DNA of 60,084 bases, the filler included, from Sanchytrium tribonematis (Eukaryota): the NCBI GenBank assembly GCA_018985235.1. It is 4 parts of 4 records of this genome, joined end to end, with 100 filler letters (N's around TTAATTAATTAA, not from the genome) between each part and the next. Parts side by side here need not be neighbours in the genome. Positions count along the whole stretch, not along the records: positions 1 to 15,021 come from JADGIG010000159.1; positions 15,122 to 30,105 come from JADGIG010000160.1; positions 30,206 to 45,164 come from JADGIG010000161.1; 1 more part is not named here. The stretch is one strand, 5' to 3'. Both the position numbers and the translations under genes were made by a program. The notes beneath the pieces were generated by a model. That model made no database searches. It was not told where the DNA came from and saw only the letters and a program-made list of their open reading frames with translations. Within the stretch, counting starts at the first letter, position 1. Each line of letters starts with the position of its first letter. Shown here piece by piece: positions 8,219-45,164 of this stretch.

Positions 8219-9323
8219 ATGGGGTGTGCTTCGAGTTCTGAAAATAAAGAAGGAAAAAGACAAAATGATGAAATTGAAAATCAAATTAAAAATGACAGAC
8301 TTAAAATGAGGTCTGAAGTTAAAATGTACGTGATTTATTCTAATTTAGGCTTTTACTTGGAGCTGGAGAATCAGGAAAATCAACTATTTTGAAGCAAATG
8401 CAATTGATCCACGGATCGGGCTATAGTAATGATGAGCGAGAAGCATTTAAAGAAATTATATTCAGCAATACAGTGCAAAGTATGCGTGTAATTTTAGATG
8501 CCATGGAATCCCTAGGTGTCTCTCTAGATAACGAAGGTAACAAAAAGCATAGAGAGACTGTGATGAATCAACCTTCTCAGATTGAGTCCGACCACTTCCC
8601 AAAAGACGTTTCTACAGCCGTCAAGGAATTATGGAATGATGCAGGTGTGAAAGAATGCTTTGGTAGATCTCGAGAATACCAATTAAACGATTCTTCACGA
8701 TATTATTTCGATGCTATTGATCGCATGACTGAGCCAAATTACTTGCCAACTGATCAAGATATTTTAAGATCGCGTGTTAAAACAACAGGAATTGTTGAAA
8801 CTACTTTTAAAATTGGCGACCTCACATACAGAATGTTTGACGTTGGTGGACAAAGAAGTGAGCGTAAGAAATGGATTCATTGTTTTGAAAATGTAACAGC
8901 GATCATTTTCATGGTTGCTATTTCTGAATATGACCAAGTTTTACTTGAAGATGAGACTGTCGTAATTTATTTTTTACTTAGAATCGTATGCAGGAAGCCT
9001 TGACTTTATTTGATTCAATTTGCAATTCAAGATGGTTTGTGAAAACATCAATCATTTTGTTTTTAAACAAAATTGATTTATTCAAGGAGAAAATCAAGAG
9101 ATCGCCTATTAGCAAATTTTTCCCAGACTACACTGGCGGGGAAGATTATGATGCGGCTTGCGAATACTTTTTGCATCGATTTGTTTCTTTGAATCAGTCT
9201 GATGTGAAACAAGTGTACACCCATTTCACTTGTGCAACAGATACCACGCAAATCAAATTTGTTATGGCTGCCGTTAATGATATTATTATTCAGACTAATT
9301 TGCGGGATGTCGGATTATTGTAA
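8219..9323 (+). CDS. Heterotrimeric G-protein alpha subunit (Gi-like/fungal group I), 3 exons, 353 aa
   Basis: MGCASS acylation motif, GAGESGKS, RVKTTG, DVGGQRSE, NKxD, TCAT. Exons 8219-8325, 8349-8961, 8982-9323; introns of 23 nt (8326-8348) and 20 nt (8962-8981) restore the frame. Confidence 0.95.
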
Positions 9324-9349
9324 AAGTAAATTGCAGGTTTATAAGTTTA

Positions 9350-12115
9350 TTAAGGAAGAAATTCCGAATAAGTTTTTTGAGAGTGAACACTTTCTCTAGA
9401 AGATTTAGAAAATACCTCGCTTCCCTTTTTCCTCATGATTGGAGTCCCGGGTTCTCTTTCAGTGATGGAGTTTTTAGATTTGAGTAATTTAGATTCTTGA
9501 GACTCTGCAAAAGAAGATCTTGACCTAATATTTTTAGCTGCTTCAATATTTTCTGACAACCGTCTATTTCGAATAAGTTTTTTCTGAGGGCCCTCAATCA
9601 TTAAATCAGTTAGATAATCTAATGCCGACGACCATGCTTCCTCTGTTTCAATGTCAAATTCAGAAAGTAAAAATTCTCTCATAGTTTGCAGCAGACAGGA
9701 AGTTAATCGTGTAAACATGTCAGGACGAACACCCCATTCTTCATGCTGCTTGCCATGTTCTCTTATTTTGTCTTCATGCTCCTCAATTTGCTCTAGTTTT
9801 TTGACAACAAGACTAATAAGCCCACCAAAAGCTTTGGATTGACTCATGACATCTGGGAAAAATTTAACAAACTCTTTATCTGTGGTAAAAAGATTATCAT
9901 AATATTTAAAGCTGAAAATTGTAGTGGCCGACTTCTGGAACTCTAAGGTGTCTTTTGGGAAATAATTAAGTGAGATATTTTTTGGATCTATTTTTAAAGT
10001 GACAAGCTTCTCCCAACTTCTACTAATAAGTTTAATCTGTAGTGGACAAATTTTAGGACCTACTGGGGCGGGCCGCTTTAACATTGAATTTGTTTCCGCC
10101 CTCCTGCGGATTTTGGGTCCTTCTATCATAAAAGCTCCTACTAGATTAAGAGCTTGCTTCCATGCCGAAAATGCAGTCAAGTCAAATTCTTCACCTAAAA
10201 ATTCTTTCAAAGTTGCAATTAAACATCTTTCTTGACACTCATAAAATTGTGGTTTAATTCCACTTATTTCAGAGTTTTTTCTACCTTGTTCTCTGATTTT
10301 GTCTTCGTAAAAATCTACGAATTCTAGTTTTTCTGTAATAGTGAATAAGAGACTTGCAAAATCCGCTCTTTGTTTTTCTGGACTATTATACATTGTTGAA
10401 AATTCAGAGTATTCCCACAAAAGATTATCATAGTACTTCACGCAAAACATTGTCTGGATCTTGATTCCGCTCTTGTTTATTCCCGTGAGTAAAAGTTGAT
10501 CACTACATTTTAATTTGAATGAAGAGTATGGTATCGTCTTTTCTAACAAAAGCTCCCAAGAATTTCTTATGATTTCTATTTTGTCCTCTGAAAATTGGTT
10601 CACTAAAATATTTGCAAATTTATCATCGTCGCTTAGTGATTCTTTTTGGCCCTCAATCATAAATTGAATCACAACCTCAAAACATGTTCTCCAAGATTTT
10701 AATAAATTTGCAGATAATTTTTCAAGCAAAAATTCTTGAAGTGTCTTGAGCGTAGCGTCCTTTATGCGACCGAGCATCGCTCCGTTAATTTTATGTAGCT
10801 CTAGATGAATTCGTCCAAGATTTTTCGCATAATGCTGAAAATCAGTTGAATTTTCAAACTTTATGAGAATTACATCAAATAATCCATCAAACATTTTTTT
10901 TAATGACATAAAATTAGGAAAATAGTAACGAAGTGATGGCACCTCAAAAAATAAATTGTCGTACATTTTTAATACAAAATATTCCATATTGGAGGGATTG
11001 GTCGCTTGATCAAATAGGCTTTTCATGTCAAAGGTTTTAAATTTAAGCCTTTTTGGATCTAGATTCATATTCTTAACTAATTCCCAAGACCTTCTCATAT
11101 TTCGAAGTTCTATTTGAGATACCTTTTCATCTAGGTTATCAGTGCTTTTCGCTTTCAATCGACTCTCCTTTTCATTGAATCCCTCTATCATAGCATTAAT
11201 GATCGTCGAAAATGCATGTTTCCACGCTTTCTTTGCGGTAAACCCAAATTCATCTGACAGAATAATTTCAAAAGTTTCAAGTAAACTTTCTGCAAAAGCC
11301 TCTAAATGTTTTTTCTCAACTTGGTACTCTTCCATATGTCGCCGACCAAGCTTTTTAAAGTAATAACTATTATCCTCCAACTTCGAAGACTTAAATATCA
11401 TTCCTTCCATCATTTTTACAAAAGCTTTTCGTTGCGTCATTTCTTCTGGAAACATTGCGGCCATTGTTGGTTCCTTTTTGAACAACAAGTCGTAAAATTG
11501 AAAATGAAAAATTGTCACAGGATCGGTTTGCCGGTTGCTACCACCTAACATTTTCCGTAAATCCTCATTTGTTAGTTGAATGCTTTCTGGGGTGAGTTTC
11601 TTTTGTAGAACCAAATCCCATGGCTTTTTTAGTGCATCCGTATTGTTTTTCTTTTTGTCAAAAATTTGAGTTAGCATTTTTCGCTTTTTCTCTGCTTTTG
11701 CTCCAATAATTATAGCAACAACATCTGAAAGTCCTATCTTCCATAGTTGTAGCTGATCTATACTCACCTGATCTTGCAGAATATCTTCTATCACAATGAT
11801 GAAGTTATCAATCCACGCGTTAAGAATATCTGGATTTAAATGACCCAGTATGATCTTTAAGGATTCTTGCTTGCTGGGGTCTTGTTTTCGCACTTGTGCC
11901 GCTGCATCTAAAAGCGCGTTTATAAGATTAATATTTAAATAGGTTTTGATCTCTTGATATTTGTTTATCACATTGTCGATAGTAAGGAGAATAAATGTGG
12001 ACGCGTTGTCAATTTCAAATTGAGTTTTATCAATATTCTCGAGGCTAACTCTGGCATAATCAAACTCGATAATTAATTTCCAACTAGCTTCCAACAGATC
12101 ATTGGGGATTGACAT
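9350..12115 (-). CDS. Tandem multi-globin-domain protein (4 clear globin repeats plus a degenerate N-terminal one)
   Basis: Repeated pattern [SP]W ... F..x[FMY]YD[NL]L ... F[P] ... G[RK]xH ... AW/SW ... MIEG. B10 Tyr at aa 208/385/562/739; F8 at H260/H437/N614/H791. Confidence 0.85.
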   Translation of the reverse strand: MSIPNDLLEASWKLIIEFDYARVSLENIDKTQFEIDNASTFILLTIDNVINKYQEIKTYLNINLINALLDAAAQVRKQDPSKQESLKIILGHLNPDILNAWIDNFIIVIEDILQDQVSIDQLQLWKIGLSDVVAIIIGAKAEKKRKMLTQIFDKKKNNTDALKKPWDLVLQKKLTPESIQLTNEDLRKMLGGSNRQTDPVTIFHFQFYDLLFKKEPTMAAMFPEEMTQRKAFVKMMEGMIFKSSKLEDNSYYFKKLGRRHMEEYQVEKKHLEAFAESLLETFEIILSDEFGFTAKKAWKHAFSTIINAMIEGFNEKESRLKAKSTDNLDEKVSQIELRNMRRSWELVKNMNLDPKRLKFKTFDMKSLFDQATNPSNMEYFVLKMYDNLFFEVPSLRYYFPNFMSLKKMFDGLFDVILIKFENSTDFQHYAKNLGRIHLELHKINGAMLGRIKDATLKTLQEFLLEKLSANLLKSWRTCFEVVIQFMIEGQKESLSDDDKFANILVNQFSEDKIEIIRNSWELLLEKTIPYSSFKLKCSDQLLLTGINKSGIKIQTMFCVKYYDNLLWEYSEFSTMYNSPEKQRADFASLLFTITEKLEFVDFYEDKIREQGRKNSEISGIKPQFYECQERCLIATLKEFLGEEFDLTAFSAWKQALNLVGAFMIEGPKIRRRAETNSMLKRPAPVGPKICPLQIKLISRSWEKLVTLKIDPKNISLNYFPKDTLEFQKSATTIFSFKYYDNLFTTDKEFVKFFPDVMSQSKAFGGLISLVVKKLEQIEEHEDKIREHGKQHEEWGVRPDMFTRLTSCLLQTMREFLLSEFDIETEEAWSSALDYLTDLMIEGPQKKLIRNRRLSENIEAAKNIRSRSSFAESQESKLLKSKNSITEREPGTPIMRKKGSEVFSKSSRESVHSQKTYSEFLP

Positions 12116-12234: not shown

Positions 12235-14179
12235 TTAGCGAAGAAAATCTACCATTTCCATATCTAAGCTTTGAGACTTGGAGAATACTTTGGGCCCAAA
12301 AAACTTAGAATTTTGATTAATCATTTGGACCAACTTATCTTTTAGAGCAACGAGCGATTTCAATTGCGCCTGTCGAGTCAAATCTTTTGCTTCAGCACTA
12401 TAACAGGTTAAATAGCTTTTCCCAATCGCTTCAATGCAATCGAGAACAAGAGGAGAGATATCCGGTATGTAATTGAGTAGCTCTTCATCCAAATAGAATG
12501 AGCTTTGATTTGTTAAGAAAACCTTGCTGTTTTCAATATACTAAGTTAGCTACAAATACCTCTACGGCTTTCAGAAATTGCTGCTCAACCAAAGCGTCTT
12601 TAAAATATACCAAATCAAGCAATCGCATTGTAATTTTTAGGTCAGTTGATTGAGAATATTGTTTGACATACTTTTCAGTCAATTTGATCAAATCATTTTT
12701 CTGAAAGGTGTATAAGGGGATCCCTTGTATGATTCTTGTTAAACTTTCATTTAACCGATGTAATACAGCCTCATAATTTTGAGAATAATCCCATAGATAC
12801 AGCGCAGTCTCGATTTTCTTTTGTGCCAAGGCTTGAGTTGCAGCTGATGAAACTATGCTCTCCTTGAATTCAACTTCGCTCAAATTCATTTTTGGAAGAT
12901 ATTCCACCAGCCCTTTTTGCAGCAAATAATCAAGATCATTTTTGTTAGCATGGACAAGCAAATCTGTCCATTGCGATTGAACAAACTTTAAAAATATCCC
13001 TTTCCCATTGATAAGTTGCATTAGGTAGAACACCTTGTCTTTCAATTCAGAGAGATTTAGAATATATGAAATAATTAGATTCTGAATGTGGAACGTTCTA
13101 TTATATTGATCAAACAAGGTGTCTGATAAAATGGGAGAAGTTGGCACCAATAATTTTTGGTTTTGATGCAATAGAATAGCAATATGTATAGCGTCCAAAG
13201 CGTACTTCGAATCCTGAAGTAAATAGTTTAAGCCTTGACCATATTCCATTACAGAGAAGCATTTTTGTGCTTTGTCGTGAGGACTTCCTTTGGACAAATC
13301 CAATTCTTTTTTGATATCCTCCAAAGATTTGGCCCCCGTTGTAAACAGATGCAAAAGATGCCAAAACATGTGTTCCCAAGTATTATGAATCACCCTATCT
13401 AATTCTAATTGCTCTCTTGGTGCCAAAATGTCACCTCTACATTTTTTCAAAGCTAATGAATAAACATCGTCTCCAAGATTGAGCCTTTTTAAATCTACAG
13501 GCAAACCTGTTCTTAATGAAAAATATAACTTTTGGCTGGAAGTACCTTCCAAGTTTTTGACTCTCATGAATCCGTCAATCAATTCTTCTTGATTAAAGTT
13601 ATTTCCAATCTTCGAAATAGCACTATGGCGCTCAACCACTTTCTGCATGATATCCCTAAATTCAGATTCTAGATAAGTTTTTGCTTTTACAATAACATTT
13701 TGAGGGGAACTTTCCTTATATATAAAATTCACCATTTTCCAGAGACGAGCCTGCCCTACGTCCGCCCAGTGCTCCATGACAGTAGATTTAAATTTGTTTT
13801 CGCCTTGGATTTTCAACTCTAGCATAGATTGCTTTGGCATTATAGCCATACAATTTTCTTTGATGTTTTTGATTATATCCTGATAAACTTCATCTAATTC
13901 TTGTACAATGTGCTGCTCATACTTTAAATTAGAGATGTTAAATGCATTTAAAACAGCGTTTTGCTCGAACTCTTGAGTTTTATCTAAGTTGGTAGCTTTT
14001 CTTTTGTGAAATGAATTTTGGTAGTAATTCAGATGATCTAGTTGCTTAGTTGCTGGCGGTGCTTGGGAGCTCAATTTTTTAGAAAGTGAATAAATACTGG
14101 AAATATTGGTAGTGTAAGAATTTAGATTTTTAGCCTGTTGCAAAAGCTGTTGCAAATCTTCGACTTTTGAATTGGTCAT
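12235..14179 (-). CDS. NIC96: Nucleoporin Nic96/Nup93 (divergent), 2 exons, ~641 aa
   Basis: LQQLLQQAKNL N-terminus, AKTYLESEF, LYFSLRTG and DAIHIAILL motifs. The 19-nt intron at 12541-12559 (gtatttgtagctaacttag) joins the two ORF-track frames. Confidence 0.75.
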
Positions 14180-15021: not shown

Positions 15022-15121
15022 NNNNNNNNNNNNNNNNNNNNNNNNNNNNNNNNNNNNNNNNNNNNTTAATTAATTAANNNNNNNNNNNNNNNNNNNNNNN
15101 NNNNNNNNNNNNNNNNNNNNN
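15022..15121. other. Artificial contig linker N44-TTAATTAATTAA-N44
   Basis: Six-frame-stop 12-mer flanked by Ns; the UCH gene on the left is cut. Confidence 0.97.
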
Positions 15122-15809: not shown

Positions 15810-18490
15810 TGGTAGCGAGGAAATCCATCTTTCAAAAGCAGAAGGCCACTGTTTAGGAATTGGTGTTTCAGAAATGCAAGAAAACCCCGAAATTGAGAAA
15901 ACCCCAAAACCAAAAAAAATGGAGAAAATTATCAAAGTTGAAAACATCATTTTAAAGGATTTCAAGAAAAAGTAAGAAAAAGGTGTCTTAAATAAAATGG
16001 ATTCGGCAGGCACAAAATTAGTTAAACACGAAAAAGAAATTAAAAACATTAAAAATAAAATTGAAAAAGGCCTGCTTCGAAAATGAATCCACCCACAGGA
16101 GAGATCGAAGGCCGTTTCTCAAATGTGGCGCAAGCAATGGAACAGCTTGGGGATTCTGCGGGGTCTCCGAGACTTGCGTTAAGACCACCCTTTGAGCAAG
16201 CAATTGAGTCTGATAGCATGGACGGTTCAGAAGAAAATGCCTTGGTTGAAAGAGAAGGTTACTTAGAGTCAAAAGAACTAAGTCCAACCATCAGAAATGA
16301 TCCTGATCCACATAGTAATGGATCAGATGACGACAACAGTTCGAATCCCTCACGAGGAGATTCAAGTGACTATAGTCAAGCAAGAAGAGGATCAATGACT
16401 AACAGTCTAACCTCTAATACTGCACCACCACCACCTGTGCAAACTAAAACTAGGAGTCCTGTCTTGGATAAAAGAAGTTTAAATACTATTTCTTCACTAT
16501 GTAAGAATAGTTTAGATAAGTATCATCCAAAAAATGAGATTGAGCCCTGATTCAGAAAGTTGGAGTTTATGTGTGACCTTCACCATTTGGATAAAGATCA
16601 TAGGAAGTTTTTCATGATTAGACTGATGCCTGAGCACGCATTCAAGCACATTGAGAGAAGGTATAAAGGTACCTTATGAAAAATTGAAAAAGAAGGTTAT
16701 TCGTCTATACAGACCGAAGGGTGTCCTAGACTCTTTGTTCAAGGGGAAACTTGTCGCCAGAAACCAGGTGAAAAATATGAGCGCTTTTAAGACAGAGTGC
16801 TAGACTACATTGCATTACAAAGGCAATGGTAGCAATGAAGTTAAGAAATTATTGCTATGATCCTGAAATTCAGAAGAAAATTAGCTTACGTGGAGGCTTT
16901 GAGCCTAAGACAATTTCGTCACACGCCTTAAAGTTGGAAAGGTATAATGGTGGACCATTGGGATCAATGGGAGGAAACATGGCACCACGTAAGAGAAAGT
17001 CCTATGATCGACCAGAATTTCGAAAGAAATATAAATACGATTAATATGACAAGGGCGCAAACAGTGGCAAAGACAAGAACAGAGAAAAGCCTGATAAGTT
17101 TAAAGCTCAGTGCTTTAGATGTGGCAAATTAGGTCAATTTAGCCGCGACTGTCCGAAGAAAAAGAAGGGTTATTTCAAACCTGATATGAGCAGACTTAAC
17201 ACGTTCACGTTTTCAAATAAACCAGTTGAACCTTATTCTTTTACATTGAACAATATTGAAGTCTTGATTGATGGTGGAGCATTCCTAACCTGATTTCAGA
17301 GCAGTTTGCACTTGATCCGGAATTCCTAGACTTAGTGCTAGAGAATCGACTGAGATAAGATGTTACAAAATGACGTTATTGAGCCGTCTAATTCGGATTG
17401 GAGATCTGCAGTGGTTTTAATGACAAAACCAGATGGATCTGTTCGATTTTGTGTAAACTATAAGCAATTAAACAAACACACGAAGTTTGACGCGTATCCG
17501 TTACCGGATCTAAATTCTCGACTAGAACTGAAATCGGGATATTGGCAAATTAATTTAGCAGATCCCGACAAAGAAAAAACGGCCTTTGTGACACCATTTG
17601 GGCTGCAACTCCAATCAAGCAACCACCAGTTGGAACTACAAATCCTGAAGATTTTGCAGTTGGTCTGCCACCAATTGACTCCAATCAAACCACTCCAATC
17701 TCAAGTAACGCGAAAGCAAAAGCTCGAAGATTCAAGCGAAAATACGATACTGACAAATTAAAGTCAGCATTGGCTCAAATCAGAGTCAAATGCCGTCAAA
17801 TATTAAAATCTGCGCATTTAGAAGAAGGCCCAAATGCTTTTAAAGAGCTTAATGAGGCTGTGGATGCTGGGATTGAGGCAAATGTAAGAGCAAATGGAAG
17901 AAGAGTTTGACGTCGAAAAAATAAGCGGCTTTAAAATCACTAGAATCGGGTCAAACTCAGACTGTTGGTGATGATAAAGTGTTTTGGGAGCCAATGAAAA
18001 ATGTTGAAAATACATTGGCCTTTCGTGATTTTAGTAAAAATGCGAAAAAAACCCAATCACATCTTTTACAAATATATTAAAGGAAAATAAAAAAAACATT
18101 ACAGTAAAAATAGAAAAAAAATTAAGAGTGGGAAATGTAACAGGAATGTCATCTAAAACAGAGCACCTGGTTCAGACAGTACTTAAAGAGGTTCATGATG
18201 GTCTATTGGCTACTCACTCTGGAAGAGAACAGGTGACCTTTCACCTAAGAAAATATTATATAGAAGTTGTGGAGAAGTGAAATAGCAAAAGGGCTGCGAT
18301 TGATTTACAGATTGGTGATAAAGTATACGTGGTAAAAACAATTCCAGGTCGTGAGCTAGAAGATAAGCTAGAGGATGACACAATTACAATACTTAAGTTC
18401 TTTGGAAAAGATTCAAAGAAAGTCTTAGTGAAAGAGAAATTGGATCTAAGCCCGCAAACTGTTAAGGAGGCCTTTTTAAAGAAAGAGGGA

Positions 18491-18710
18491 TGTTGCAGGT
18501 CATACTCCGACGGGAGCAGTTTTGACCCTGTAGACCCAAGGGGGATCACGAGGGGTCACAAAGGGATTTGAGAGATTTATGATTGGCTCTTCTATTTTTC
18601 AAAGACTTGTGATGTATAAGGGAACCAATCAATAGAAGGACCAAAACACATATTATCGGGACATTCCCCAAATAAATATCTATGTCAACGACTTCAAACT
18701 TTACGCGACA
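18491..18710 (+). repeat. 3' LTR (220 bp)
   Basis: Direct repeat of 15580-15809 with about 17 substitutions by manual count; preceded by a polypurine tract. Confidence 0.9.
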
Positions 18711-19051
18711 CTAGGCATTGTCTATTTGAAAAAACATGTCATATCCACAATTTTTATAAAATGCCTTTCCAAATAGATTCAAATCGTTATCAGATAATAT
18801 TCCACGCGAATACACGGTCAACCCCTGTCCTTTTTACAACCACACTTTTAAAAAAACTAATTCTGCTGAGACATTAGATTCATTATCTGAGGATTCTGAA
18901 CAGTTTATGGTATTAAGTACAAGACAAAATCAACTCATTCATTACAAACAACATATGAGAAAGATGTACAGCTTCCGTCCGAATCAGATTAAGAAGTGTT
19001 TACAAGAGACTGATTTGTGGTATCAAAATACCAGCAACAACTATCTGATTT

Positions 19052-19202
19052 TGTGACCTATCACAAAGATAAATTTAAACCGCATTTGCATTCTTCACCC
19101 CTTAAATTGTTTTGAGCAGAAGTTGAGGGCAAAAAGTGTTTGGTATTTAATACATTACAAAACTAAATATCAATTTATAACATTATAGTAATTTACAGAT
19201 TT
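19052..19202 (-). repeat. Right arm of the inverted repeat (pairs with 15122-15272)
   Basis: Direct reverse-complement match. Confidence 0.9.
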
Positions 19203-19779
19203 TAGTATGCTGCTAAGATTCAAAAATGTTTGATTAGTATTAAACACAATGCAACACTGTATAGCTTTTTTTGACACTTTATTAATCACGACATTTGCCC
19301 AGATCTTTAGATCCAATATCCTTTTACTGGTGATTTAGGTGACATTATGACATGTTAGAAAATGAGCTGTCCAATTTCTAAAATGTTTAATTGTAACCCC
19401 AAAATTAAAATTTGTTTCCAAGTCTGCTTTGGGTTGGTGATTATATTTGCTGCATATCGCTTTGTTTAAATGATGGAAAAAAAATTCAAATATGCATACA
19501 CGGCATTGAAATTCTGGGTAGCAAATACTATTCAATATTTTGTTTCGTATGGCTATTTTGTGATTTGTATATAACAAGGTCTCTCATATATACTCATTAG
19601 TATAAATCGGCTCTATTCTAATATCGCAGCAATGATGAGTTTTCTGCGACCATTATGGTTTGATGCTGGCATTTACAGTATCATTGAAAGATTCAACGGC
19701 TTGCGCCATTGTCGTATCAGCTATCTGTTCGTCATCGTCCCAAGGAAGCTGTATATTACCTTATAATAGCGTTTTGTTA

Positions 19780-20700
19780 AGGAAGTCTATTTCTTAGCGT
19801 CTCCGAATAGTCTTCTTCAGCCATCAAATTCATTGTATCTAGCACGGCTACTGCTTTAGTCTTCTATTCTTGTTGCCTGGGTGCCACAGCGGCTACCATA
19901 ATCTCTCTAACCGTGCTTAGGTCTGCATAAGTCTCCTTTTCTTGGGATTCTACCGTTGCACATTGTGTCTACTTCTTAAAGATCATATTCTCTTTAAAAT
20001 CTAACAGAGGACTAAGTGGTAGTGAAGAGCATGCTTCGATTACCCTTTCACTTTAGGAATCCAACCATGGCCCAACAATTTCTCTGTAATTTTTCATGTT
20101 CATGACATTTTCTGCTTCACCATAATCAAATTATGACTCACTCCTGCCATCAACATTGATGAACACGAAATGTTCATATTCGTCGATTTGAAGTAAACTG
20201 TTTGGCTTATTTTTCTACATTTTCTCCAATTTTCAGATGCCCTTTATAGAATGCTTTGAAAATATATCTACAAATGTCTGAATGCATTTGATATTGCTTA
20301 GTCGGAAAATATGTTTTATTAGACCATCACCATGCAGCTTTTTGAACGTTTTTCTATTAAATTTTTGCCTCTTAGTCATTTTCTATCTCAAAAGTTGTTC
20401 TAGTTGTAACTGATCTCCAATTAAGTATTCGTTTTTGGCTTTTGCATAATAAATGGCAAGAAGAAATTCCGCCTCATTAATTTGAGCAGCTTCATCTAAT
20501 ATGAAATCATCAAACGCTGAATTTCACAATTTAGATCTAGCAGAACAACTTGTTGTAGAGACGATTATTTCATATTTTGCAAATATTGCTTGTTTTGGCC
20601 TTTAAATTAAATTGATGCTTTCTGAATTCCCAATGCTGATCAGCTTGCAACTTATTAAACTACTCTTAATGAAGAAAGTATTCAAATTTACGCTCTAAAC
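19780..20700 (-). pseudogene. Decayed UPF1/Sen1/DNA2-NAM7-type SF1 helicase
   Basis: FILDEAAQ (DEAAQ at 20482-20496), LIGDQLQL (GDQLQL at 20401-20418), frameshifted KQYQMHSDIC (~20296), ATVESQ (motif V-like); stops and frameshifts; ends approximate. Confidence 0.7.
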
Positions 20701-21483
20701 CTCTACAGTCAACAAATTGGGACCCATTAAAACTAATTATCTTATCCTCGATTATAGTAGTCGGTGTTATGAGTATCAATCTAATTGAGCAAAGCGTCTG
20801 TATAATCTGTAAATAGAACAGACACAAATTCATTTTCCCCAATTTTCATCGATTTTTAATCAAAAAGATTCGAGTTACAAGCATCAAAAAATGATGCGTG
20901 GTCAAAAGATTTGAGCAATAAAAAGGGAGTCGCTGTGAGTGTTGTCAAAAATTCCAAAAGTCTTGGGAGTCAGTAAATTTCAAAATTAAACCCCACAAAG
21001 AGGCAAATATTGATAGAACGCGATAACGCCAAATTGCAAGAATGGTAAAAACTCAACCGTATATTGAAATAAACATGATTTCAATTTTTTTGAGGGACCC
21101 AGGATCGTTTTATTGATTTTGATTCAAAAACAAAAGGGGTGTCCAGACTAATATTGACGCTTACTTGTATTTTGGCAAACAATTCGCATTGAAATTGATA
21201 AAGAAAAATAAATAGGAGTAAACTTTATTTTAAAGACGCATGTTTCTGCCATTTCAGGCCCTATGTAAAGATCAGGGATTGAAAATCCCTAATTGATAGG
21301 GAAGAACGGTTAACAGGGGTATGTTTGATACTAGGTGTATGTCATTACTGCTAATATTATAAAATTAGCAATAACTACTTGACTAATCTATTTAATTATG
21401 TTTCTTATCGGTAACATCGTTCCCGTATCTGTGTCATCTGATTTCATGAAAAGGACACGCTCAGTTAACGATCCCTGAAACAA

Positions 21484-24400
21484 ATGGATTCAAAAGAGAA
21501 GAAAGATGAGAAACCAAAAGTTCCTTTCCAATTGACGGATGTTTTTAAACGATATGGTACTACCAAGGAATATTTTTTAATGTTTATCGGCTTTTTAGGT
21601 GCTATTGGTTTTGGTGCGAGTTTACCACTTCAAACTCTATTTTTTGGTGATGCCATTAATGCATTTAACAGCTATGATTATGTCATGAATCACCCATTCA
21701 ACGATGCAGTGAGAGATGCTGCCAGAGATAAAGTCGAAGAACAAGTCTTAAAAGTCATTATAAGTTTTCTGATTTTAGGTGCTGCTGTCTTTGTTTGCGC
21801 ATATTTATTGCAATCTCTATGGTGTTATACAGGTGCTCAACAAAGTAGAAGATTGCGTCTCAAATTTTTCAACGCTATGCTCTACCAACCTGTGGCTTGG
21901 CACGATGAACACAAGGCAGGTGAATTGAATACTCATTTAACAACATCCATGTCTTTGATTCAAGAAGGAGTCAGTGAGAGATTCGTGATGGTGTTTAATT
22001 ATTTGGCTTCTTTTATAGCTGGTTTCGTGATTGCATTTTCTAAAAGTTGGAAAATGACTTTGGTTTTACTGAGTGTCTTTCCACTGCTGGTGATTACAAG
22101 TGCTATTTTTGCTAAAATTATCAGTGAAAGTGCCAATTCTACACAATCTGATTACGCACAAGCTGGTGCAGTTGCCCAAGAAGTCCTCAGTAATATCAGA
22201 ACTGTAACAAGCTACAATGCGCAAGAGCATTTTATTAAGAAATTTAATGTATTTATTGACAAATCGTACATTGTGGGTCGATTAAAAGGATTCAAAACTG
22301 GTTTGGCAATGGGAGTCACATTTATGCTGATGTTTGGAGATTATGGCTTAGGATTTTGGTATGGTAGCACATTGGTCGTTGCTGGAGAAATTGATGGTGG
22401 TACAGTGTTGAATGTCTTTTTTGCTGTATTAATTGGTGCATTTGTTTTAGGAAATTTAAGTCCTAGTTTGGGTTCCATTTTTGGAGGAAATGGTGCTTGG
22501 CATTTTATTAAACAAGTCGTCGATACTTCTCCTCCTCTTGTAGAGGGAAAGAAGCCAGAGAAATTACAAGGTTTAATTGAATTCAAGGATATTGAATTTA
22601 CTTATCCAACCAGAAAAGAAACTCAAGTCTTGAAGAAATTTACATTGACCGTCGAACCTGGTCAGAAAGTAGCATTAGTGGGTGCTTCTGGAAGTGGTAA
22701 AAGTACAATTGTGCAATTATTACAGAAATTCTACAAACCAGATGCTGGAACAATTACTGTCGATGGTCAAGATTTACAAGATTTAGACACCAAGTGGTGG
22801 CGAACCAATGTTGGATTAGTCAGTCAAGAACCTATTTTATTTGATGCTACTATTGCTGAGAATATTATTTTGGGCTGTAAAGAATTTGATCCAGCAACTC
22901 CACAAGAAAATATTGAGAAATCTTGTCAATTGGCATTGGCACATGATTTCATTATGAAATTCCCTGACAAGTATCAAACATGGGTGGGAGAGAAAGGTTC
23001 ATTGATGAGCGGTGGACAAAAGCAGAGAATTGCGATTGCCAGAGCATTAATCAAAGATCCTTCTATTTTATTATTGGATGAAGCCACATCTGCTTTAGAT
23101 TCTTCGTCTGAAAAGATTGTTCAAGAAGCATTGGATAAAGCAGCAGATAACAGAACCACCATTGTGATTGCTCATCGATTATCTACCATTAGAGATGCAG
23201 ATAAAATTGTGGTTATGAAAAGTGGACAGATTATTGAACAAGGTACTTATGAATCTTTAGTAGCCCAACAAGGTGAGTTTTACAGTTTGGTGAAAGCTCA
23301 AGAACTAGCTGGAAACAAAGAAGAAATGAAACAAGCAAAGACTGAAGCAAAAGAAGAAAATGTGGTTGTTCAACAAGAAGCTGAAAAAGTCAAAACATTG
23401 CCTATTACCAAGTGGCCACTTGCAAGATTATTCAAGATGCAAAAACCTGAATTACCAATTATGATTTTGGGTGCATTTGGTGCTGCCGTCAATGGTGCTA
23501 TCTTTCCTGTTTTCAATTTATTTTTTGGTAATATTTTAGGTGTTTTTGCGAAAGATAAGAGTGAGATTCAAGAAGGTGCCAATTTATATGCTATCTTGTT
23601 TGCTGTATTGGGATTTGTTGCTTTAATTGCAAATACAGTCCAAATTACCTGTTTCACAATTAGTGGTGAAAAGTTGACTTGTAGAATCCGTGAAAACTTG
23701 TTTAGAGCTTATTTGAGACAAGATATTGGGTATTTTGATGATCCTAATCACACTAGTGGTGCCTTAAGTGCAAATATTGCAGAAGAAGCTGAAAGAATTA
23801 AAGGATTAACTGGAGAATTATTGGGAATTATTTGCCAATTTCTTGCTACGGTCATTTTTGGTCTTGGAATTGCATTTTATTATAATCCTGCTTTAGCTGG
23901 TTTGATTTTAGTCGTTATGCCATTTACTGCTTTGCAAGGTCATTTTATTTAATTTAGGTTGGATGGAAATGAAAATATTAGAAGGATTTAATCAAAAAAC
24001 TAAAAAGTACTACTCAAATGCATCAAGCATTGCTGTAGATGCGATTGCTAATATCAGAACTGTGTTGAGTTTGAATAGACAAGAACAATTTATGAAGTAT
24101 TACAGCGATAGGACTCTTAAACCACATGAAATGAGCGTCAAAGGCGGATTTGTGACTGGTTTGATGTACGGCTTTTCTCAAGCATCTGTCTATGCAGTTT
24201 TAGCATACGCATTTTGGATTGGTAAAGTTTGGTTGGTCAATGGTAGAATTTCAAGCAAAGACATGTTTATTGTCATCTTTTCGATTATTTTCAGTGCTAT
24301 GGGTTTAGGTCAAGTTTTAAGCCAAGCTAAAAATGTATTTAAAGCCGCTGCAGCTGCCAAAAATTATTTTGAGATAATTGATCGTCAACCACCAATCGAT

Positions 24401-29496: not shown

Positions 29497-29683
29497 ATAA
29501 ATTTATTGAAACTCAACGAATCGTATTAGTGGGTACCGCTTTTGACATTAAATGTCTTGTCATTCAAGGAAAAATTAATGGTTAACAAAAACTTTTACTT
29601 ATCAGTGAATTTTTGTAATTTTTTATGAAATTTCACCACAATTCAATATTGAATTTCCTAAATTGAGGAGATTTTAAAACTTG

Positions 29684-30105
29684 ATGGCGATATTTCCATA
29701 CTATAAAACTTGTCAAGCTAATAGTTATATGGCTATAACGGGAGCCCTTATTGATGATGTAAAGATAACAAGAAAGGCTTGGATACTCCCTGGCCAGAAA
29801 GTTGTTAAATTTTCAGTTCAGCCGCAAAATTATCATTTAACAGTTGAGGCAATGTCTATCGAGAAACTGCCATTTCTGCTACCAACCACATTTACAATTG
29901 GACCGAACATTGACCCCGACTCGCCTTTTGATTTACAAGCCTATGCGATGTTGTTAACTGATCAAGCCAATTCTGATCATTTAAGGACTATCATCCTTGG
30001 TATCGTTGAAGGAGAGACTAGAGTCATTGCTGCTGGATTGAAGATGGAAGAGATTTTTGAAGGAACTAAGAAATTCAAATCGGATATATTTGAAAAAATT
30101 CAGCT
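29684..30105 (+). CDS. Flotillin-like SPFH protein (fungal/plant type), truncated at contig end
   Basis: YMAITGALI, AMSIEKLPFLLP..FTIGP, GIVEGETRV, MEEIF. Confidence 0.85.
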
Positions 30106-30205
30106 NNNNNNNNNNNNNNNNNNNNNNNNNNNNNNNNNNNNNNNNNNNNTTAATTAATTAANNNNNNNNNNNNNNNNNNNNNNNNNNNNNNNNNNNNNNN
30201 NNNNN
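30106..30205. other. Artificial contig linker
   Basis: N44-TTAATTAATTAA-N44. Confidence 0.97.
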
Positions 30206-32999
30206 CAATTTAAGTTGTATAAACATGCAAATTGGATCTCATTTATATGGTCTCATTTGACTTCTGACATAAATATTAAGGATTTGGCACTGATAACAAT
30301 GCAATCCATACGCTTTTTTCAGCTTGAAATCAACATCCCAGAATTTGTTCAAAACATCCGAGCACTCGAAATCCGGGAAGGAAGTTTGATACAAGTCATT
30401 TCATTGCTACTTAAAAATAATCAGGACAGCCAGTTGGTGGATCTGATGATGCACCTAAGCATTGATTTATTTCAGCGAGTTTTACACAATGATTTTTCAC
30501 CAGATTTGCTTGATCAAATTGATCATATTATTCATCATGGTACACATGAACTTCTCCCAGACTGTATTAATGTTATATTTCAAGCGATATTGAAATCAGA
30601 AATAGATATCCCTGCTTTTAATAAGTCCTTGAAGTGGTACTTGCTTGTAAAAAATAATAACTGCGACAAAAATCTCATTAAAATCCTACCGATGCTATAC
30701 AACCATCATTTGTTTCCAAAATTATTGCAACAAATTCCTTATTCAAAAGAATATCATTCGGATTACTTATTTTTATTATCTGTGTTGGAATACAAAAATT
30801 TGCATTTGGAAATTTGTATGGATTTGAGAGAAAAATATCAACTGGGCAAGAAGCATATTACCAGATTAAAATCGATTGATTGCGATTATTCTCCTTTGGA
30901 TTTATTAGAATCAAGTCTTATCCCTCAATTGATTAATTCCGACAATCAGGATCCCAAATACATTCAAAGTTTATTAATGTCACTATATTACCAAAATTTT
31001 GATCTCATTAAAATTAAACAAAGATCTTTAACATTACAAGTCAACAACAAACCCGTACATGTTCCAGTACAAACTCCACTTTATATGCTTGAAAATACAA
31101 ATGACCCCATTCATATGCTACTTAATCGAATAAGAAACCAAATGGAAAGAGGAATTCGTGCTCAAATTGAAAATGAAGATGAGACTGAAGAGGACAACGA
31201 GGATGACGACATTGAGGAAGTTCAGAGTGACAATGAGGACCAAATGGATATTGATGATGACGAAGACAATGCAGAGGAAATTAAAAACGAGGAAGACGTA
31301 GAAGACAGCGAAGAGGAGAATGAACTTGGCATAGAGTTTGAGGAAATACACATGGAATCTGGGGAGTTAGAATCTGACCAAGAGGAAGAAATCTACGAGG
31401 AGGACAATGAAAACGACGAGGAGATGCAAGAAATGCCTGGAACGAGGCCGGTCCATCACATCATGCGGCAATTACATACACACATACATCATAAAATACC
31501 CATTCATGTTGCTAAAAATTACAAATTGCCAGACTCTTACCAAATACAAACCCCCGAAATCGAAGAATTGCCCTTTAAAGAATCAAAATCTTTGGATAAT
31601 GATATTGGCAGTATTTTTTCATATCAAAATGAACTACTTGATCCCAATGCAAGCGTATTTGGTGCACTATTCAACAAATCACCGTCTATTGAAATGTCAA
31701 AATCTGAAACCAAATACCATATTCAAGAAAGTCTTACTGTGCTTCCTTTTGGTTCTATTAATCCGTTGCTCCTTAATGCAATCTCGCGTGTATACAAACT
31801 AAATCCTAATAATATAACTGCTAGTCCTTTGCTAAGTTACCTATTTGCACTGCAATTAAATGACCCTTTAATCTTACAATGCAAAGTTCTCCCTAATTGG
31901 ATCAATTCGATTATTCAGTCAGTTCCTTTTTTAGTTCCATTAAGGGTGAGACAATTGCTATTTCATAAGCATCATTCCAGAAACAAAATGATAATTTCAA
32001 GACAAAAGATACTCCCATCTCTTATTTATATGATGGAGCGATACCAAAATATTAACATTATATTTATAAACGAAGTTGGAACAGGTCTTGGATGCACAAA
32101 TGAGTTTTACACGCTGGGATGCAAAGAATTGGCAAGGAAAGACTTAAAAATATGGATGGACAAGGATCAACTTTATCCACTTCCTATTGTGAATGATGAC
32201 ACGAGATTGTATTTATTTGAAACATTAGGTGCATTTATTGCTCAAGGAATTATGAATAAGCATGTTCTTAGTTTGGATCTACATATTTTGTTTTTAAAAC
32301 TAATTTTGCGCGATTTAAAATTTGATTTCAATGACTTAAAAGAGATTCTTCCACAGGTCACGAGAGTTATTGAAGAGTGTAGAGTAGGCAGAATGGACAT
32401 TGGTGGTCTAAATTTGGACTTTCATTATCCTGGCACCGACGTTTTGATGATTGAGAAAAACAAGTCACTAAATCAGGATTGTTTGGAGGAATATGTGGAT
32501 TGTCTGTTAGATTATACATTTGGTGTAGGCATGAAACCAATTGTTCAATCGGTCCGAAAGGGAATTCAAAAAATTGTACCTTTGGAAATATTTAGTGCTT
32601 TAAGAGGCCAAGAATTGTTAAATTTGCTTTCTAGTCACTACACGAAATGGAAGATTACTGGTAACAATTGCTCATATAGACATGGCATCCAATGTCGAAT
32701 GCGGACATGGCATTTTAAAAAACGATACTCTTTTCAAAATGTTTTTACAAATATTGAGCGAATTCGACAAAGTGCAGCAAGAATTGTTTTTAATGTTCAT
32801 TAGTGGAAGCAAAAAATTACCTAATCAATCTTGGTCTGATCTTATTCCTAAAATGAAAGTAGTTTTAAAAGAAAATGGATTGCCGAGCGTGATGACTTGC
32901 GCTCATTATCTCAAGATTAGAAACTATACAGCAATAGAGGTATTTCAGAGAGAGTTGCTGCTAGCAATGAATGAAGGATCTGAATTCCATCTGTCTTAA
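30206..32999 (+). CDS. HECT E3 ubiquitin ligase, Ufd4/TRIP12-like, 5'-truncated
   Basis: [26 protein letters not shown] (catalytic Cys), C-terminal FHLS, acidic linker; 19-nt intron at 32661-32679 joins the two frames. Confidence 0.85.
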
Positions 33000-33018
33000 A
33001 ATAAAAGGATTTCTCTCC

Positions 33019-33330
33019 ATGTCTGAGAATGTTGATCAAAGAAGCATTTATGTAGGGAATGTAGATTTCAGTGTGACAAGTGAAGAATTAGGACTATTTT
33101 TTAAATCTGCCGGCAAAGTTAATAGGGTTACGATACTAACAAATCAAAAAGGACTACCCAAGGGCTTTGCATATGTGGAATTTGGCGATGTTGAGGCTGT
33201 CCAAAAGGCACTATTGCTCAATGGAGAAATCTTGAGTAATAGACCATTAAAAGTTAGTACTAAACGTACCAATGTGCCTGGAAGAGGACGAGGTAGAGGT
33301 AGGGGCAGAAGCAGATCGAGGCCTTACTAA
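33019..33330 (+). CDS. PAB2: Nuclear poly(A)-binding protein 2 (PABPN1/Pab2-like RRM)
   Basis: [11 protein letters not shown] (RNP2), KGFAYVEF (RNP1), KRTNVPG, RG tail ending PY. Confidence 0.85.
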
Positions 33331-35253: not shown

Positions 35254-35529
35254 ATGTCATTTATTTATTTGGCACAAGACAGAAAACTTCAGGAAAAGAA
35301 GTTTGAAGAAAAACTGGATGATCTTGAAGCTAGACTACAAAGATGCACTATATTTAAAGAGAATCATGAGAAGCCACCTAAAGAACTGGAATTTGTCAGA
35401 TTTCACGCTGAGTTCAATCATTATCATTCAAAACGAGTCACTTTTAATCTTATTGAGTAAACAATTGGGTTCTAAATTAGTTTGATATTTCAGAAATTAA
35501 CTTGGGTCGAAGGAGTTATGTCAGCATAG
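35254..35529 (+). CDS. Hypothetical small protein (~83 aa) with a possible 24-nt intron
   Basis: The ORF stop lies inside gtaaacaattgggttctaaattag (35457-35480), which fits the local intron consensus; the spliced frame ends at TAG 35527-35529. Confidence 0.35.
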
Positions 35530-35656
35530 GTAGTGACTCAGCAGAGGGAACCTTGTAACATCTTTAATTTTTACTTACCATCAATGAACATCGTTGTGCT
35601 GTGTCATCCTGTTTCCGTGTTTTTCCAATTTGTAGCAAAAAACGAGAGGGCGAAAC

Positions 35657-36781: not shown

Positions 36782-36791
36782 TAAAAGCCAT

Positions 36792-38433: not shown

Positions 38434-39649
38434 TTAATAATAGGGTATATCATTTTCATCGTATACACTATCCACCCTTTTGATCTCTATGCCCTTATTT
38501 GATTCCAGATATTTTTGTAGTGGTTTCCTGTCAACAGTTTGGATGAAATACTTCCCAGGGTTGTCACACCAGCTAACGTATCCCTTATAATATGGATACT
38601 CTATTTTAGATTTAAATACCTTCAACATGTAATATACTCTCTAGATGATTCACGCTTCTGCTATTCAATCGCATCTCCAATGGAGTGCTTCTCGTATCTT
38701 TTCGTAAACGAACAAAACTTTTTAGACTAATGATTTTGCAATCATCTCTCAAATTCCAAAATTGTTGATGAAGAATAAAATCCAATTCTGGTGTAAAAAC
38801 GTAGTTATTCACGAACACTATGGTAGCCTTTTTCAAAATTTCAAACATGCCCTGATGATCAGCAATGTTCCCTTTAAATAATTGGATATATCCACAGTAT
38901 TGGGAATAATTAGCCATCCTTTTCATAAATTCTCGTTTTAAATCCAATCCCAAGTCTGCTGTTTCTTCTAGCATTTCAATTCCATAGCACTGGCACTTTG
39001 CCAAACCTGCAACTTGACAGAGCACATTTCCTATACCACATCCCAAATCTACAAAAACTGAGTCTCGCCCAATTGGTAGTTCCTTTAACATCTTTTCGAT
39101 AAAAATAAAATTAACCTCTCCATAAACATTATCGCTAAAAGCTTTATAATTGCTGAGTCTCTTTGCTTTTGGATCCACAACACGCTTATAAGCTTGATCG
39201 TATATATGTTCAATTAGTGCTGGATGTGTTGAAAGCGAATGATCAAATAATTCTTGATATATATGGTATTCGTCTCTAAAGCTGTCAGGTTTTTCAAAAG
39301 AAGATACACCTACAACAAGCTGAATTTTGTGAGCATCCTGAAGGCGCTGATTAAATGTAAGCACCGCATTGTTAAATAACTCAAAATTCTTTGTGATCTT
39401 AGCAATTCCCAGTTGCCATTTGATGTACTCTACATCTTTAAAAAATTTATACCTCATCATAGGAGTCATTAAAACACAGTATTTAAGTACGTTGTGTACT
39501 GTGGCCATAATTTCGTTAACGCCATAAGAGTCTAAATAAATAAACTCTTCGTTTAAATTAGGGTACACTAATGTTATAGTATTCATAGTTTTACCTGCCT
39601 TATTAGGAAAGAAGCAAGGATTTCTACTTTTATAGTGTTTACAAGACAT
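38434..39649 (-). CDS. DOT1: Histone H3K79 methyltransferase Dot1, 2 exons, ~398 aa
   Basis: YKAFSDNVYGE, FVDLGCGIGN, GIE, FVNNYVF, IISLKSF, and VSW after splicing of the 19-nt intron at 38601-38619. Confidence 0.92.
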
Positions 39650-42485: not shown

Positions 42486-44131
42486 GCAGATATTGATTGA
42501 TATGCGAAACAGGAGATTTCAAATACTGGAGAATTCATTAGCAGGAATGAAAAATAATTAATTTACGAATGAGATATCTCTACTAACAGATCTCTTCTAT
42601 AATAATAATAAGAAGATAGCATGTCATACAATATACCTCGACTTGCGCTCTGATAGTCAAAGCACCTCCATTTTAAATATAATATATTGAATTGAATTTA
42701 TTTTAATAAGCTAGATACAATATACTAGTAACCCGGAATTTGAGTCTGATTGGATAAAACTTTTAACGTAAAAATCATGGAAAAATTGAAAAAAAATTTA
42801 ATTGAGTTGGGATGTCCAGAACCACACATAGATAACTTGATTATTGAATCAGAGAAAGGCAGAATATCTGAGGACTTGAACAATTTAATTTTAACAATGA
42901 GTAAAGAATTAAAAACAGCTTCAGCAACTCCAGCAGAAGTCGAACAGGCAAATGCAGACAATTCAAAATGCTATCTAAACAAGGAGCCAAATCCTCTCAA
43001 TTAATGTTGAATTTAATTAGTGTACAACAAAGAAATGTCAAATTGATAGAAGAGCGATTTAAAAGACCAGGCACGCGTTAAAGAAGATATAAAAAAGACA
43101 CCTGGAGACAGTTGGCAGAGCAACGAGGTATTAGTCTGTTTAAGTTGATTTCGAGTGTGTGTATTGCGGATGTCCTGTCGAATCTTCCTGGACAGCTCAT
43201 AGATTATTATAAGAAAATTGGTGGTACAGAGGTTAAATGAAATGCACTTTATACTCAAACAAATTTAAATGTTGCTATTATTCTTTTTGATTTATTTCAT
43301 GGTGGACCTTATGACAAAACAAGTATTTCAGTAGACGTCGAAGATTTGTTAACGGCCTTTGACTCTCTGTAAATCAAAGAATATTTTATTACAAAAGTGC
43401 ATGTTGGAAATATTAAAGATCAAAAAAGATATGAATAATGGTATGCATGTTAAATTTATTGGGCTTGAAAAAGACGCAGCTGATGTTATAAAAGATTGTC
43501 AAATATTTGGAGACTACTGTTCTTTGTTGAATAATGTTGAAACTGGTTTGATTGACGATTTATAGAAGATCGCAAAAGCATTGCAACTTTACAACAAGTA
43601 AATACTATCTTTTAAACAATTTATTTAATTGAAAAAGATTTCAAGAACTGGCGTAGATCTAATTGTAAATGCTTTCGACCAATTGTATTCCCAAGCGTAT
43701 AGGCATTTTCTATCGTCTTGCTATTTTCTTGATACGAAATAATGATAATTGGCTAAAATACAAGAAACCCTTAAAACGCGACGGTCCATTCTAAATTAAG
43801 GACAAATTTACAGTTTTTAAAACTGATTTTAAAATGCTTAAAATTTTGAAATGAATTTTCTCTACATCAACTAATGCTTTAAATGGCGCTTTATCAGATT
43901 TGGGTTTCATAAGTAAATCATTTATTCTAAATCGTCTTCATCAAAGTCAAAGTGCTCCATAAGTGCTAGGTCCAAAGCAAAACTTTCTTGTATAGCAAAA
44001 AAAGGTGACATTCTGAATAGGGATGTCTGTCATTTTATATCAAATAAAGACAAATAGATATGACGTGCTTACGCTAAAAATGATCATGTGAGAAAATAGT
44101 CAAATTAAGAAAACTTAAAACCTCCATTTTA

Positions 44132-45164
44132 TTATCCCAAGCTCTTTGCAAAATCAATGAGTCTTTTGATACCAATTAACCATGCACTAGCTTCTTGAGA
44201 ATGGGTGGCGTTTAACTGAACTTGCATTTGAAGCGCACCAGGGAAGTTTTTCTGTTCCAATGCTTTTGCTATACCAAGAAGACCTTGGCCAACGGGTTCA
44301 CTTACTAATTCATTGTTTAATTTGTCAAATAAATCATTCAATCGTTTTTCTATATCGTCTATTATTCGTTTCTGAGGGGGTGCAACTTTTCCAGCTACAT
44401 GCTTTAATACATTTGTAAAGACAGCCAAAAGTGGTTTATATTTAGGTGGAATATGAGATCTGTCTCCAGGTGCTACATTATAATAAAATACGGTATTTCT
44501 GCTGAGAAGGATTGCCTGAAGGTCTTTGAGCAGCTCGCTGAGCAGGACTTGGTCCTCGTGGTGGCTGATATCCAGTAGGCTGAGCTTGTTGAGGTTGTTG
44601 GGAGGGTTGATTTCCCTGTGGTTGTGGCATTTGTTGCTGTTGAGTACCTTTGCTTTTCCTTCTAGGTCTAACATTTGTAACATCGGGTGCATCATTCCAG
44701 CCACTTGCATTTGAAGTTGGGCGAACATATGTTGGACCACTAGGTGGAGCAAAAGACTGTTGCTGTTGACCCTGGAAGCCTTGATTCGATGGCTGTGGAG
44801 GCTGGAACCCAGTTGGCTGAGGTGGTTGAAATCCCTGAGTATTTGGTTGAGGAGGCTGAAAAGTCTGACTATTTGCTTGAGAAGCTTGATATCCTGGTTG
44901 CGGCGGAGTGAATCCGGTTGGCTGAGGTGGTTGAAAGCCACTTGGTTGTGGAGGTTGGAAACCTTGACCAGCTGGTTGAGGTGGCTGGTATCCAGAAGGT
45001 TGAGGTGGTTGATACCCTGAAGGCTGTGGCGGTTGATAACTATTTGGCTGTGGCGGTTGAAAGCCTTGTGACGGTGGAGATTGTTGATAACTTGGTTGGG
45101 CTGGTTGATAGCCAGAAGATTGTGACGGCTGGTATGTTTGCGGTTGGTAATTGTTGCTAGCAGG
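44132..45164 (-). CDS. SEC31: COPII coat Sec31, C-terminal part (5' end cut by linker)
   Basis: P/Q-rich region; the 19-nt intron at 44473-44491 yields KYPPGDRSHIP; then DIEKRLNDLFDKLNN and WLIGIKRLI. Confidence 0.88.
44775..45160 (-). repeat. Coding tandem repeat QPPQPxG[FY] in the Sec31 proline-rich region
   Basis: Roughly ten imperfect ggttgaggtggttga/ggctgtggcggttga units on the + strand. Confidence 0.75.

Follow-up and report, generated by a model that had tools for sequence, protein, structure and literature searches.

The closest described counterparts of the introns reported here are those of the heterotrich Stentor coeruleus, which are 15–16 nucleotides (nt) long and branch at an A that is nucleotide 10 of a 15-nt intron, that is, at −6 counted from the 3′ end (PMC9505925). 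Introns of 18–21 nt are described for the nucleomorph of Bigelowiella natans (PMC10245619, PMC2483917), of 16–17 nt for the mikrocytids Mikrocytos mackini and Paramikrocytos canceri (PMC10245619), and with a median of 22 nt for Thelohanellus kitauei and Myxobolus rasmusseni among the myxozoans (PMC13644364). Here we describe eight segments of 19–23 nt in a 60,084-nt stretch of DNA (the window) that probably comes from a sanchytrid fungus. The segments are very likely real spliceosomal introns, and we put at roughly 0.85 the probability of the full reading, in which they form a tiny-intron class with a 19-nt mode and a branch point at −6 that shrank independently of the known cases.

As far as the Stentor introns are described, they share with the sanchytrid segments an AU-rich GT–AG type, a GUA start, an A at −6, low intron density and a spliceosome that keeps most of its parts. 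Unlike Stentor, the sanchytrid is a compact-genome parasite within the opisthokonts, its predicted lariat loop would be 4 nt longer, its yTNAy motif is clearer with an invariant T at −8, and its introns are known from sequence alone. The sanchytrid introns would work like those of heterotrichs, mikrocytids and nucleomorphs; in being few and tiny, in showing a branch motif at a fixed place and in the seemingly slight reduction of the early spliceosome, they come closest to Stentor. The nucleomorph introns agree in length range, in the 19-nt figure, in narrow spread and in a donor that is mostly GT(A), but the nucleomorph holds more than 800 introns in about 300 genes, described in the sources cited above without a branch-point signature, whereas the window is nuclear and holds 8 introns in 29 genes. 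The mikrocytids, too, are parasites with few, uniform tiny introns of conserved sequence; they belong to Rhizaria, not Fungi, and unlike the sanchytrid Amoeboradix, for which U1, U2AF and SF3b proteins are listed, they are described as having a strongly reduced spliceosome of 17–19 proteins, with U1 small nuclear RNA (snRNA) not among the parts identified. Myxobolids and dicyemids are further opisthokont parasites whose introns shrank convergently to under 30 nt, at conserved intron positions, but they are animals, and their introns are slightly longer with reduced splice-site motifs.

Nearer to the sanchytrids, microsporidia and Rozella are likewise reduced holomycotan parasites with short introns. 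The shortest introns of Encephalitozoon cuniculi measure about 23 nt. Its introns average 35.8 nt and carry a CTAAYTT branch motif, with YTT at its end (PMC2483917), and those of Rozella allomycis are about 30 nt (PMC6349667). Both are thus longer than the sanchytrid introns, and the E. cuniculi donor is a strong GTAAGT; because sanchytrids branch with Blastocladiomycota, their shrinkage would be independent. The yeast Yarrowia lipolytica is a fungus with its branch A fixed at −6 (a 2-nt branch-point-to-AG distance by that paper's measure) and no polypyrimidine tract, although its introns are long with a strict ACTAAC motif (PMC2483917). The earlier note on this DNA had named nucleomorphs and heterotrichs as precedents, but it omitted mikrocytids and myxozoans. 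The fixed −6 branch is already known in Stentor and Yarrowia.

We found no account of sanchytrid nuclear introns in the literature searched, and subscription journals, theses and some supplements may hold one; PMC8371127 and PMC10459994 mention "intron" in their reference lists only. The sanchytrid proteins are described as predicted by TransDecoder on genomic contigs (PMC8371127), so introns would have been overlooked. That gene callers mis-annotate such genes is borne out by public proteins from the window and from Amoeboradix, which end inside the intron. This is likely to be an independent, previously unreported origin of a known phenomenon, and if spliced, the segments would be among the shortest introns known in fungi or animals. 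Among opisthokonts, the smallest values met in the literature searched are the 22-nt medians of the myxozoans.

Eight short segments and their 3′ motif

The window comprises four contigs, each of about 15 kb and successively shorter, and the eight introns lie on three of them, five on the plus strand and three on the minus strand. Each line gives coordinates, strand and feature.

8326–8348, plus: G-alpha intron 1, 23 nt, phase 2, gene at 8219–9323, likely branch A at 8343
8962–8981, plus: G-alpha intron 2, 20 nt, phase 0, likely branch A at 8976, at an apparently ancestral position
12541–12559, minus: probable Nic96/Nup93 intron, 19 nt, phase 0, gene at 12235–14179, likely branch A at 12546
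23939–23957, plus: intron of a full-size ABCB transporter, 19 nt, phase 1, gene at 21484–25165, likely branch A at 23952
28862–28880, plus: Vps27 intron, 19 nt, phase 2, gene at 27807–29496, likely branch A at 28875
32661–32679, plus: intron of a HECT ligase (Ufd4/TRIP12-like), 19 nt, phase 1, gene at 30206–32999, likely branch A at 32674
38601–38619, minus: intron of a DOT1 histone methyltransferase, 19 nt, phase 1, gene at about 38434–39649, likely branch A at 38606
44473–44491, minus: Sec31 intron, 19 nt, phase 1, gene at 44132–45164 truncated by the contig end, likely branch A at 44478

A direct check of the sequence confirmed the coordinates and lengths reported in the earlier note (23, 20 and six times 19 nt) and its description of the ends: on the coding strand all eight read GT...TAG, and in 8/8 a T occupies −8 and −3 and an A occupies −6. 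Pyrimidines flank this core at −9 and at −5 (7/8 each), such that a yTNAy motif spans −9 to −5. At the 5′ end, A occupies +3 in 7/8, T occupies +5 in 6/8 and T occupies +6 in 7/8; G at +5 occurs once, solely in the longest intron. The interiors are 86% A+T. When they were shuffled 200,000 times, an invariant T-N-A column pair arose 7 times (3.5e-5) and any invariant A column with a frequency of 0.0023; the six homology-anchored introns alone gave 0.00055 and 0.0185, respectively. The T−8/A−6/T−3 combination is found in just 5 of 768 GT–AG segments of 15–30 nt drawn from 12 exonic stretches (19,596 exonic positions). Unspliced translation meets a stop within 1–47 codons at the seven introns read in this way, those other than G-alpha intron 1.

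U12-type introns have an RTATCCTT donor and a TCCTTAAC branch. This consensus fits none of the eight, either at the donor or in the branch region, and the minor class was ruled out. By sequence comparison, the branch-like yTNAy fits the general branch consensus WCTRAYN near the 3′ end (PMC2483917), and judged by GT/YAG ends, junctions, branch motif and a shared site the introns are likely to be U2-type, removed by the major spliceosome. Alternatively, the introns could be spliced with U2AF or BBP recognizing the motif as part of a longer 3′ splice-site word, as with the Caenorhabditis elegans acceptor, and with the branch at −7 or at an A whose position varies. We consider this unlikely, though it has some footing: A is present at −7 in 6/8 introns, the interiors are A-rich, U2AF is kept in Amoeboradix, and the C. 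elegans acceptor is described as having conserved −6 and −5 positions (PMC2483917). Against it, the T-N-A spacing with its flanking pyrimidines fits WCTRAYN; two of the eight introns have no A at −7, and both Stentor and Yarrowia branch at −6.

Intron density is about 0.24 per kb (eight introns across some 33 kb of 29 genes, 7 of which carry them), compared with 1.30 per kb reported by a different measure for Allomyces (PMC8476143). A scan of both strands for the motif returned 89 matches of 15–30 nt, from which one candidate ninth intron emerged:

35457–35480, plus: candidate intron, 24 nt, a multiple of three (3n), with T−8/A−6 and two in-frame stops

It sits at the end of a 68-codon open reading frame (ORF) that begins at 35254 and that splicing would extend to 84 codons (35254–35530, plus strand); this ORF gave no Pfam match and no homologue. 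Besides the eight, matches were discarded where the frame runs open through them or the strand is wrong. The match at 43791–43811 is antisense to a decayed ORF, and the matches on the fourth contig link no long frames. The earlier statement that none of the introns is 3n stands for the eight lengths, but it is partly a matter of ascertainment, since an intron that keeps the frame is easily missed. The 24-nt candidate is itself 3n.

The 19-nt mode could be a small-sample effect, with a true spread that is broader (for example 19–35 nt, with 3n and longer introns) and nearer to that of microsporidia and Rozella. The sample is eight, discovery through frameshifts conceals 3n introns, and lengths of 20, 22 and 23 nt and the 24-nt candidate have already been seen. 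Yet a single length accounts for six of the eight introns (0.00022 if, as a crude null, all non-3n lengths from 15 to 30 nt are equally likely), none of the 29 gene models inspected needs a longer intron, and an 18-nt 3n match in the ABCB gene (22877–22894) was rejected as it does not suit the 2–4-residue difference from homologues. We consider a broader spread improbable, if somewhat less so than the acceptor word, and prefer a genuine 19-nt mode.

Junctions in seven genes

Junctions were scored by fitting all frame-restoring GT/GC–AG pairs, plus models that delete only 1–2 bases, to homologue profiles. In all four junctions tested the listed intron scored highest, by 9–18 bits over the next splice pair. 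G-alpha intron 1 reached 219.3 bits as the best of 7 splice variants (next, 201.8; best indel-only model, 207.8), and intron 2 reached 447.1 bits (next, 438.0; indel-only, 435.7). The spliced G-alpha protein has 353 amino acids and aligns without gaps to those of Ambispora (278/353 identical) and Paraphysoderma (275/353). The spliced spacing recurs at junction 1 in 113 of 120 homologues (5 have another spacing and 2 are unmatched by the pattern) and at junction 2 in 114 of 120 (6 unmatched). For Sec31, splicing links a frame rich in Pro and Gln with a motif found at the start of the C-terminal domain in 10/10 homologues, with 122.7 bits versus 110.2 for the next variant and 111.4 for the indel-only model.

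Three further junctions are placed by alignment. In the ABCB transporter, glycine 871 of human ABCB4 corresponds both to the last residue of exon 1 and to the first of exon 2. Excision from the HECT ligase yields a Trp-to-His-Gly spacing identical to that of yeast Ufd4 (PDB 8j1p), as judged by eye on alignments. In DOT1, residue 293 of human DOT1L is the last matched by exon 1 and residue 294 the first matched by exon 2, and by the same visual judgement the spliced junction has no gap.

Vps27 and Nic96 are less firmly anchored. The 19-nt pair in Vps27 is the shortest that restores the frame (the next is 43 nt) and the best of 10 variants (26.5 versus 14.2 bits; indel-only, 23.6), scored on 3 of 149 homologues. 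In Nic96, exon 1 reaches position 513 of 607 of Pfam Nic96 and a 101-codon ORF continues in the restored frame; exon 2 had no family match in PDB searches of both exons, in Pfam at E 10 or in the ESM Atlas. The claim that each intron is needed to restore a conserved frame therefore holds for six (both in G-alpha, and those in ABCB, HECT/Ufd4, DOT1 and Sec31), but is weakly supported for Vps27 and indirect for Nic96.

Source of the window and ancestry of the introns

Window proteins find their best matches in early-diverging fungi. The GC content of 34.4% compares with published values of 36.27% for Amoeboradix gromovi and 34.64% for Sanchytrium tribonematis (PMC8371127). The G-alpha exon shares a 90% cluster with a EukProt protein of A. 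gromovi, and in a tree of 25 selected G-alpha sequences the window, Amoeboradix and four metagenomic proteins form one clade (100/99) beside Blastocladiomycota (88/87). The window and Amoeboradix proteins are identical at 168 of 188 positions, hence distinct. The source is likely to be a sanchytrid, and probably Sanchytrium itself, on the basis of one gene on one contig. Proteins closely related to the sanchytrid G-alpha and Vps27 are encoded in ENA, JGI and NCBI records P0121, P0122, P0243, P0244, P0245 and P0316, which suggests that further uncultured sanchytrids are present in public metagenomes.

G-alpha intron 2 allows a comparison with other genomes. A metagenome scan with the G-alpha exon listed at least 80 loci; none of those listed is near enough to be sanchytrid (best 75%), and scans of prokaryote genomes and viruses gave no locus. 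Among the 66 of 80 scorable at this site, 19 share the site and phase with a GT–AG intron of 51–62 nt, and 47 are intron-less there, many of them probably transcripts. In relatives, introns were deduced from protein read-through rather than from DNA: the intron-blind gene calls of P0121, P0241, P0243 and P0244 run into the intron 2 site and then stop. Back-translation of the read-through permits a single length each, 20 nt in Amoeboradix (P0241) and 22 nt in the metagenomic relative P0243, and the same procedure returned the correct 20 nt for the window's own protein. In P0243 a His codon forces an A at −6. The shared site, occupied by 51–62 nt elsewhere and by 20–22 nt in the window and these relatives, points to shrinkage, in the lineage as a whole, of one ancestral intron or more. 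Two parts of the earlier note's reading are supported: it is very likely that this genome of a fungus holds tiny spliceosomal introns whose branch-like A keeps to −6, and likely that they arose independently.

These data bear on whether the segments are introns at all. A look-up of RNA runs covering 21400–31000 listed none, which counts neither way. Short contigs from a seemingly fragmented assembly, the frequency of GT–AG pairs (the 768 noted above) and the genuinely decayed elements in the window would suit assembly or amplification errors or pseudogene lesions, with GT–AG ends by chance. The excess over homologues is 19–23 nt, however, not 1–2 nt; indel-only models are 3–12 bits worse and mostly require stops; the break recurs in four independent relatives and falls at an intron site of other genomes; and essential genes are hit on three contigs with a single common motif. 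Error or decay is largely refuted and very improbable. We give just as little credence to non-spliceosomal removal, or to ribosomal frameshifting or hopping past the segments: the case for splicing is built from sequence, and the size is near the steric limit described for spliceosome assembly (PMC9505925), but the canonical GT/YAG ends, the branch-like motif, the stops inside the segments, the site held in common with ordinary spliceosomal introns and the spliceosome annotated in the sister species all argue for spliceosomal introns.

Several points weigh against the full reading. With eight introns discovered via frameshifts, the 19-nt mode and the missing 3n or long introns may reflect bias, and the frequent A at −7 means that the branch nucleotide may be −7 or vary. 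The Vps27 test is weak and partly circular, as its three homologues were picked using the spliced model, and the Nic96 junction has no homology anchor, so that 13-nt and 25-nt introns are also possible there. P0243 leaves the −8 base unfixed, and −6 in P0241 is merely compatible with A. In P0122, of the same clade, both G-alpha junctions are uninterrupted (304/331 identical, gap-free), and this record could be a messenger RNA or else an intron-less gene. At the site of G-alpha intron 1, 0 of 59 matches in other loci have an intron; the common site lies 11 nt downstream and holds an intron in 16 of the 59 (41 have none and 2 are unresolved). An apparent same-site match in L007 was rejected, its intron being at the common site. 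Intron 1 is also missing in P0243, so ancestry is not demonstrable for every intron; sliding, or loss plus gain, inside sanchytrids is possible. Finally, the tree placement covers the first contig only, with a single gene.

The remainder of the window holds other features. The contigs are joined by spacers at 15022–15121, 30106–30205 and 45165–45264, each of 100 bases (44 N, a 12-base all-frame stop linker and 44 N), and genes are truncated where contigs join. An intron-less gene at 9350–12115 (minus strand) encodes 921 residues in which Pfam matches are confined to Globin, recurring over 3 stretches (E 9e-31); such a multi-globin is unusual in a fungus. Spacing is tight: the G-alpha and globin gene stops are 26 nt apart (9323–9350), and about 20 nt separate the HECT stop from the start of an RRM gene (32999–33020). 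Decayed remains resembling a long-terminal-repeat (LTR) retrotransposon occupy about 16000–21000, with weak, stop-broken matches to zinc-knuckle, reverse-transcriptase and integrase zinc-finger domains, and a 25-base stretch is repeated at 15779 and 18680. ORF fragments at 42750–43800 (plus strand), full of stops and frameshifts and of no known family, are probably a pseudogene, and the tiny-intron pattern was not seen on that strand there. Remains of a non-LTR retrotransposon with endonuclease and reverse-transcriptase matches lie at 56228–60084 (plus strand); the rest of the fourth contig had no above-threshold Pfam match.

Spliceosome parts, a model of splicing and what it would mean

The earlier note had suggested changes in U1, U2, SF3b and U2AF components. 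Loss of U1, SF3b or U2AF is not supported, as the eggNOG annotation of Amoeboradix (3,755 rows) lists U1-70K, U1A/U2B″, Luc7, SF3B1, U2AF65, U2AF35 and BBP, as well as Prp8, Brr2, Prp22, Prp17, Cwc25, Yju2/CCDC94 and Isy1; the Sanchytrium annotation, of at least 171 rows, includes U1-70K. Amoeboradix BBP/SF1 is annotated as two adjacent ORFs on one contig (PMC8371127 supplementary file 4, rows 1135–1136), as would be expected if an uncalled intron divides the gene. A search of the Amoeboradix rows by name and by KEGG/KOG identifier gave no match for Slu7, Prp18, U1C or Prp40. For Slu7 and Prp18 this absence is weak and adds to the points against the full reading, given that about half of the Amoeboradix proteins are annotated, from intron-blind calls, and that it is another species. 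Rfam and ARAGORN scans of the window gave no match, snRNAs included. In ciliates the U2 GUAGUA element is described as conserved (PMC13685798).

We propose that the introns shrank from an ordinary fungal size. U2 would pair with yTNAy at −9 to −5 and bulge the A at −6, which would attack the 5′ G to form a predicted loop of 14 nt in the 19-nt class, and of 15 and 18 nt in the other two introns. The 5-nt tail would place the 3′ site at the TAG five bases past the branch A; as a polypyrimidine tract would not fit, the acceptor is likely to be set by distance. As 13 nt from donor to branch A hardly fit U1, U2/SF3b and U2AF together, a sequential hand-over from U1 to U2 is predicted, and because G at +5 occurs in 1/8, U1/U6 pairing with the donor is predicted to be weak or compensated. 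The second-step factors Slu7 and Prp18 may have been lost: in yeast, the second step is described as dispensing with Slu7, Prp18 and Prp22 at branch-to-acceptor distances under 7 nt (PMC3392075), and elsewhere Slu7 is given as unneeded at 9 nt or less (PMC10158995). The likely driver would be compaction, biased towards deletion, of a parasite genome that is small and poor in introns; the floor of this lineage would be about 19 nt. An extension of this model to the whole phylum, with a 19-nt mode that is the shortest in fungi and animals, the A locked at −6, U1, SF3b and U2AF kept, and Slu7 and Prp18 lost because distance alone would define the acceptor, is tentative, and we rate it at somewhat under even odds.

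With introns shorter than about 22 nt the spliceosome reaches its physical floor, and the groups in which they are known (heterotrichs, nucleomorphs, mikrocytids, myxozoans and dicyemids) are remote from the yeast model. A fungal lineage with 19-nt introns would add an independent origin, and as its proteins align well to those of yeast, it can be asked which parts have changed or been lost, among them Slu7/Prp18, the U1/U6 donor pairing and SF3b. G-alpha intron 2 provides a direct before-and-after pair. Since TransDecoder was run on genomic contigs, intron-bearing genes, 7 of 29 in this window, would be truncated or split, which can distort gene counts and claims of gene loss for the phylum. 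If the phylum-wide reading is true, sanchytrids would offer a natural minimum for the U2 spliceosome that is comparable to yeast, and their proteomes would need re-annotation.

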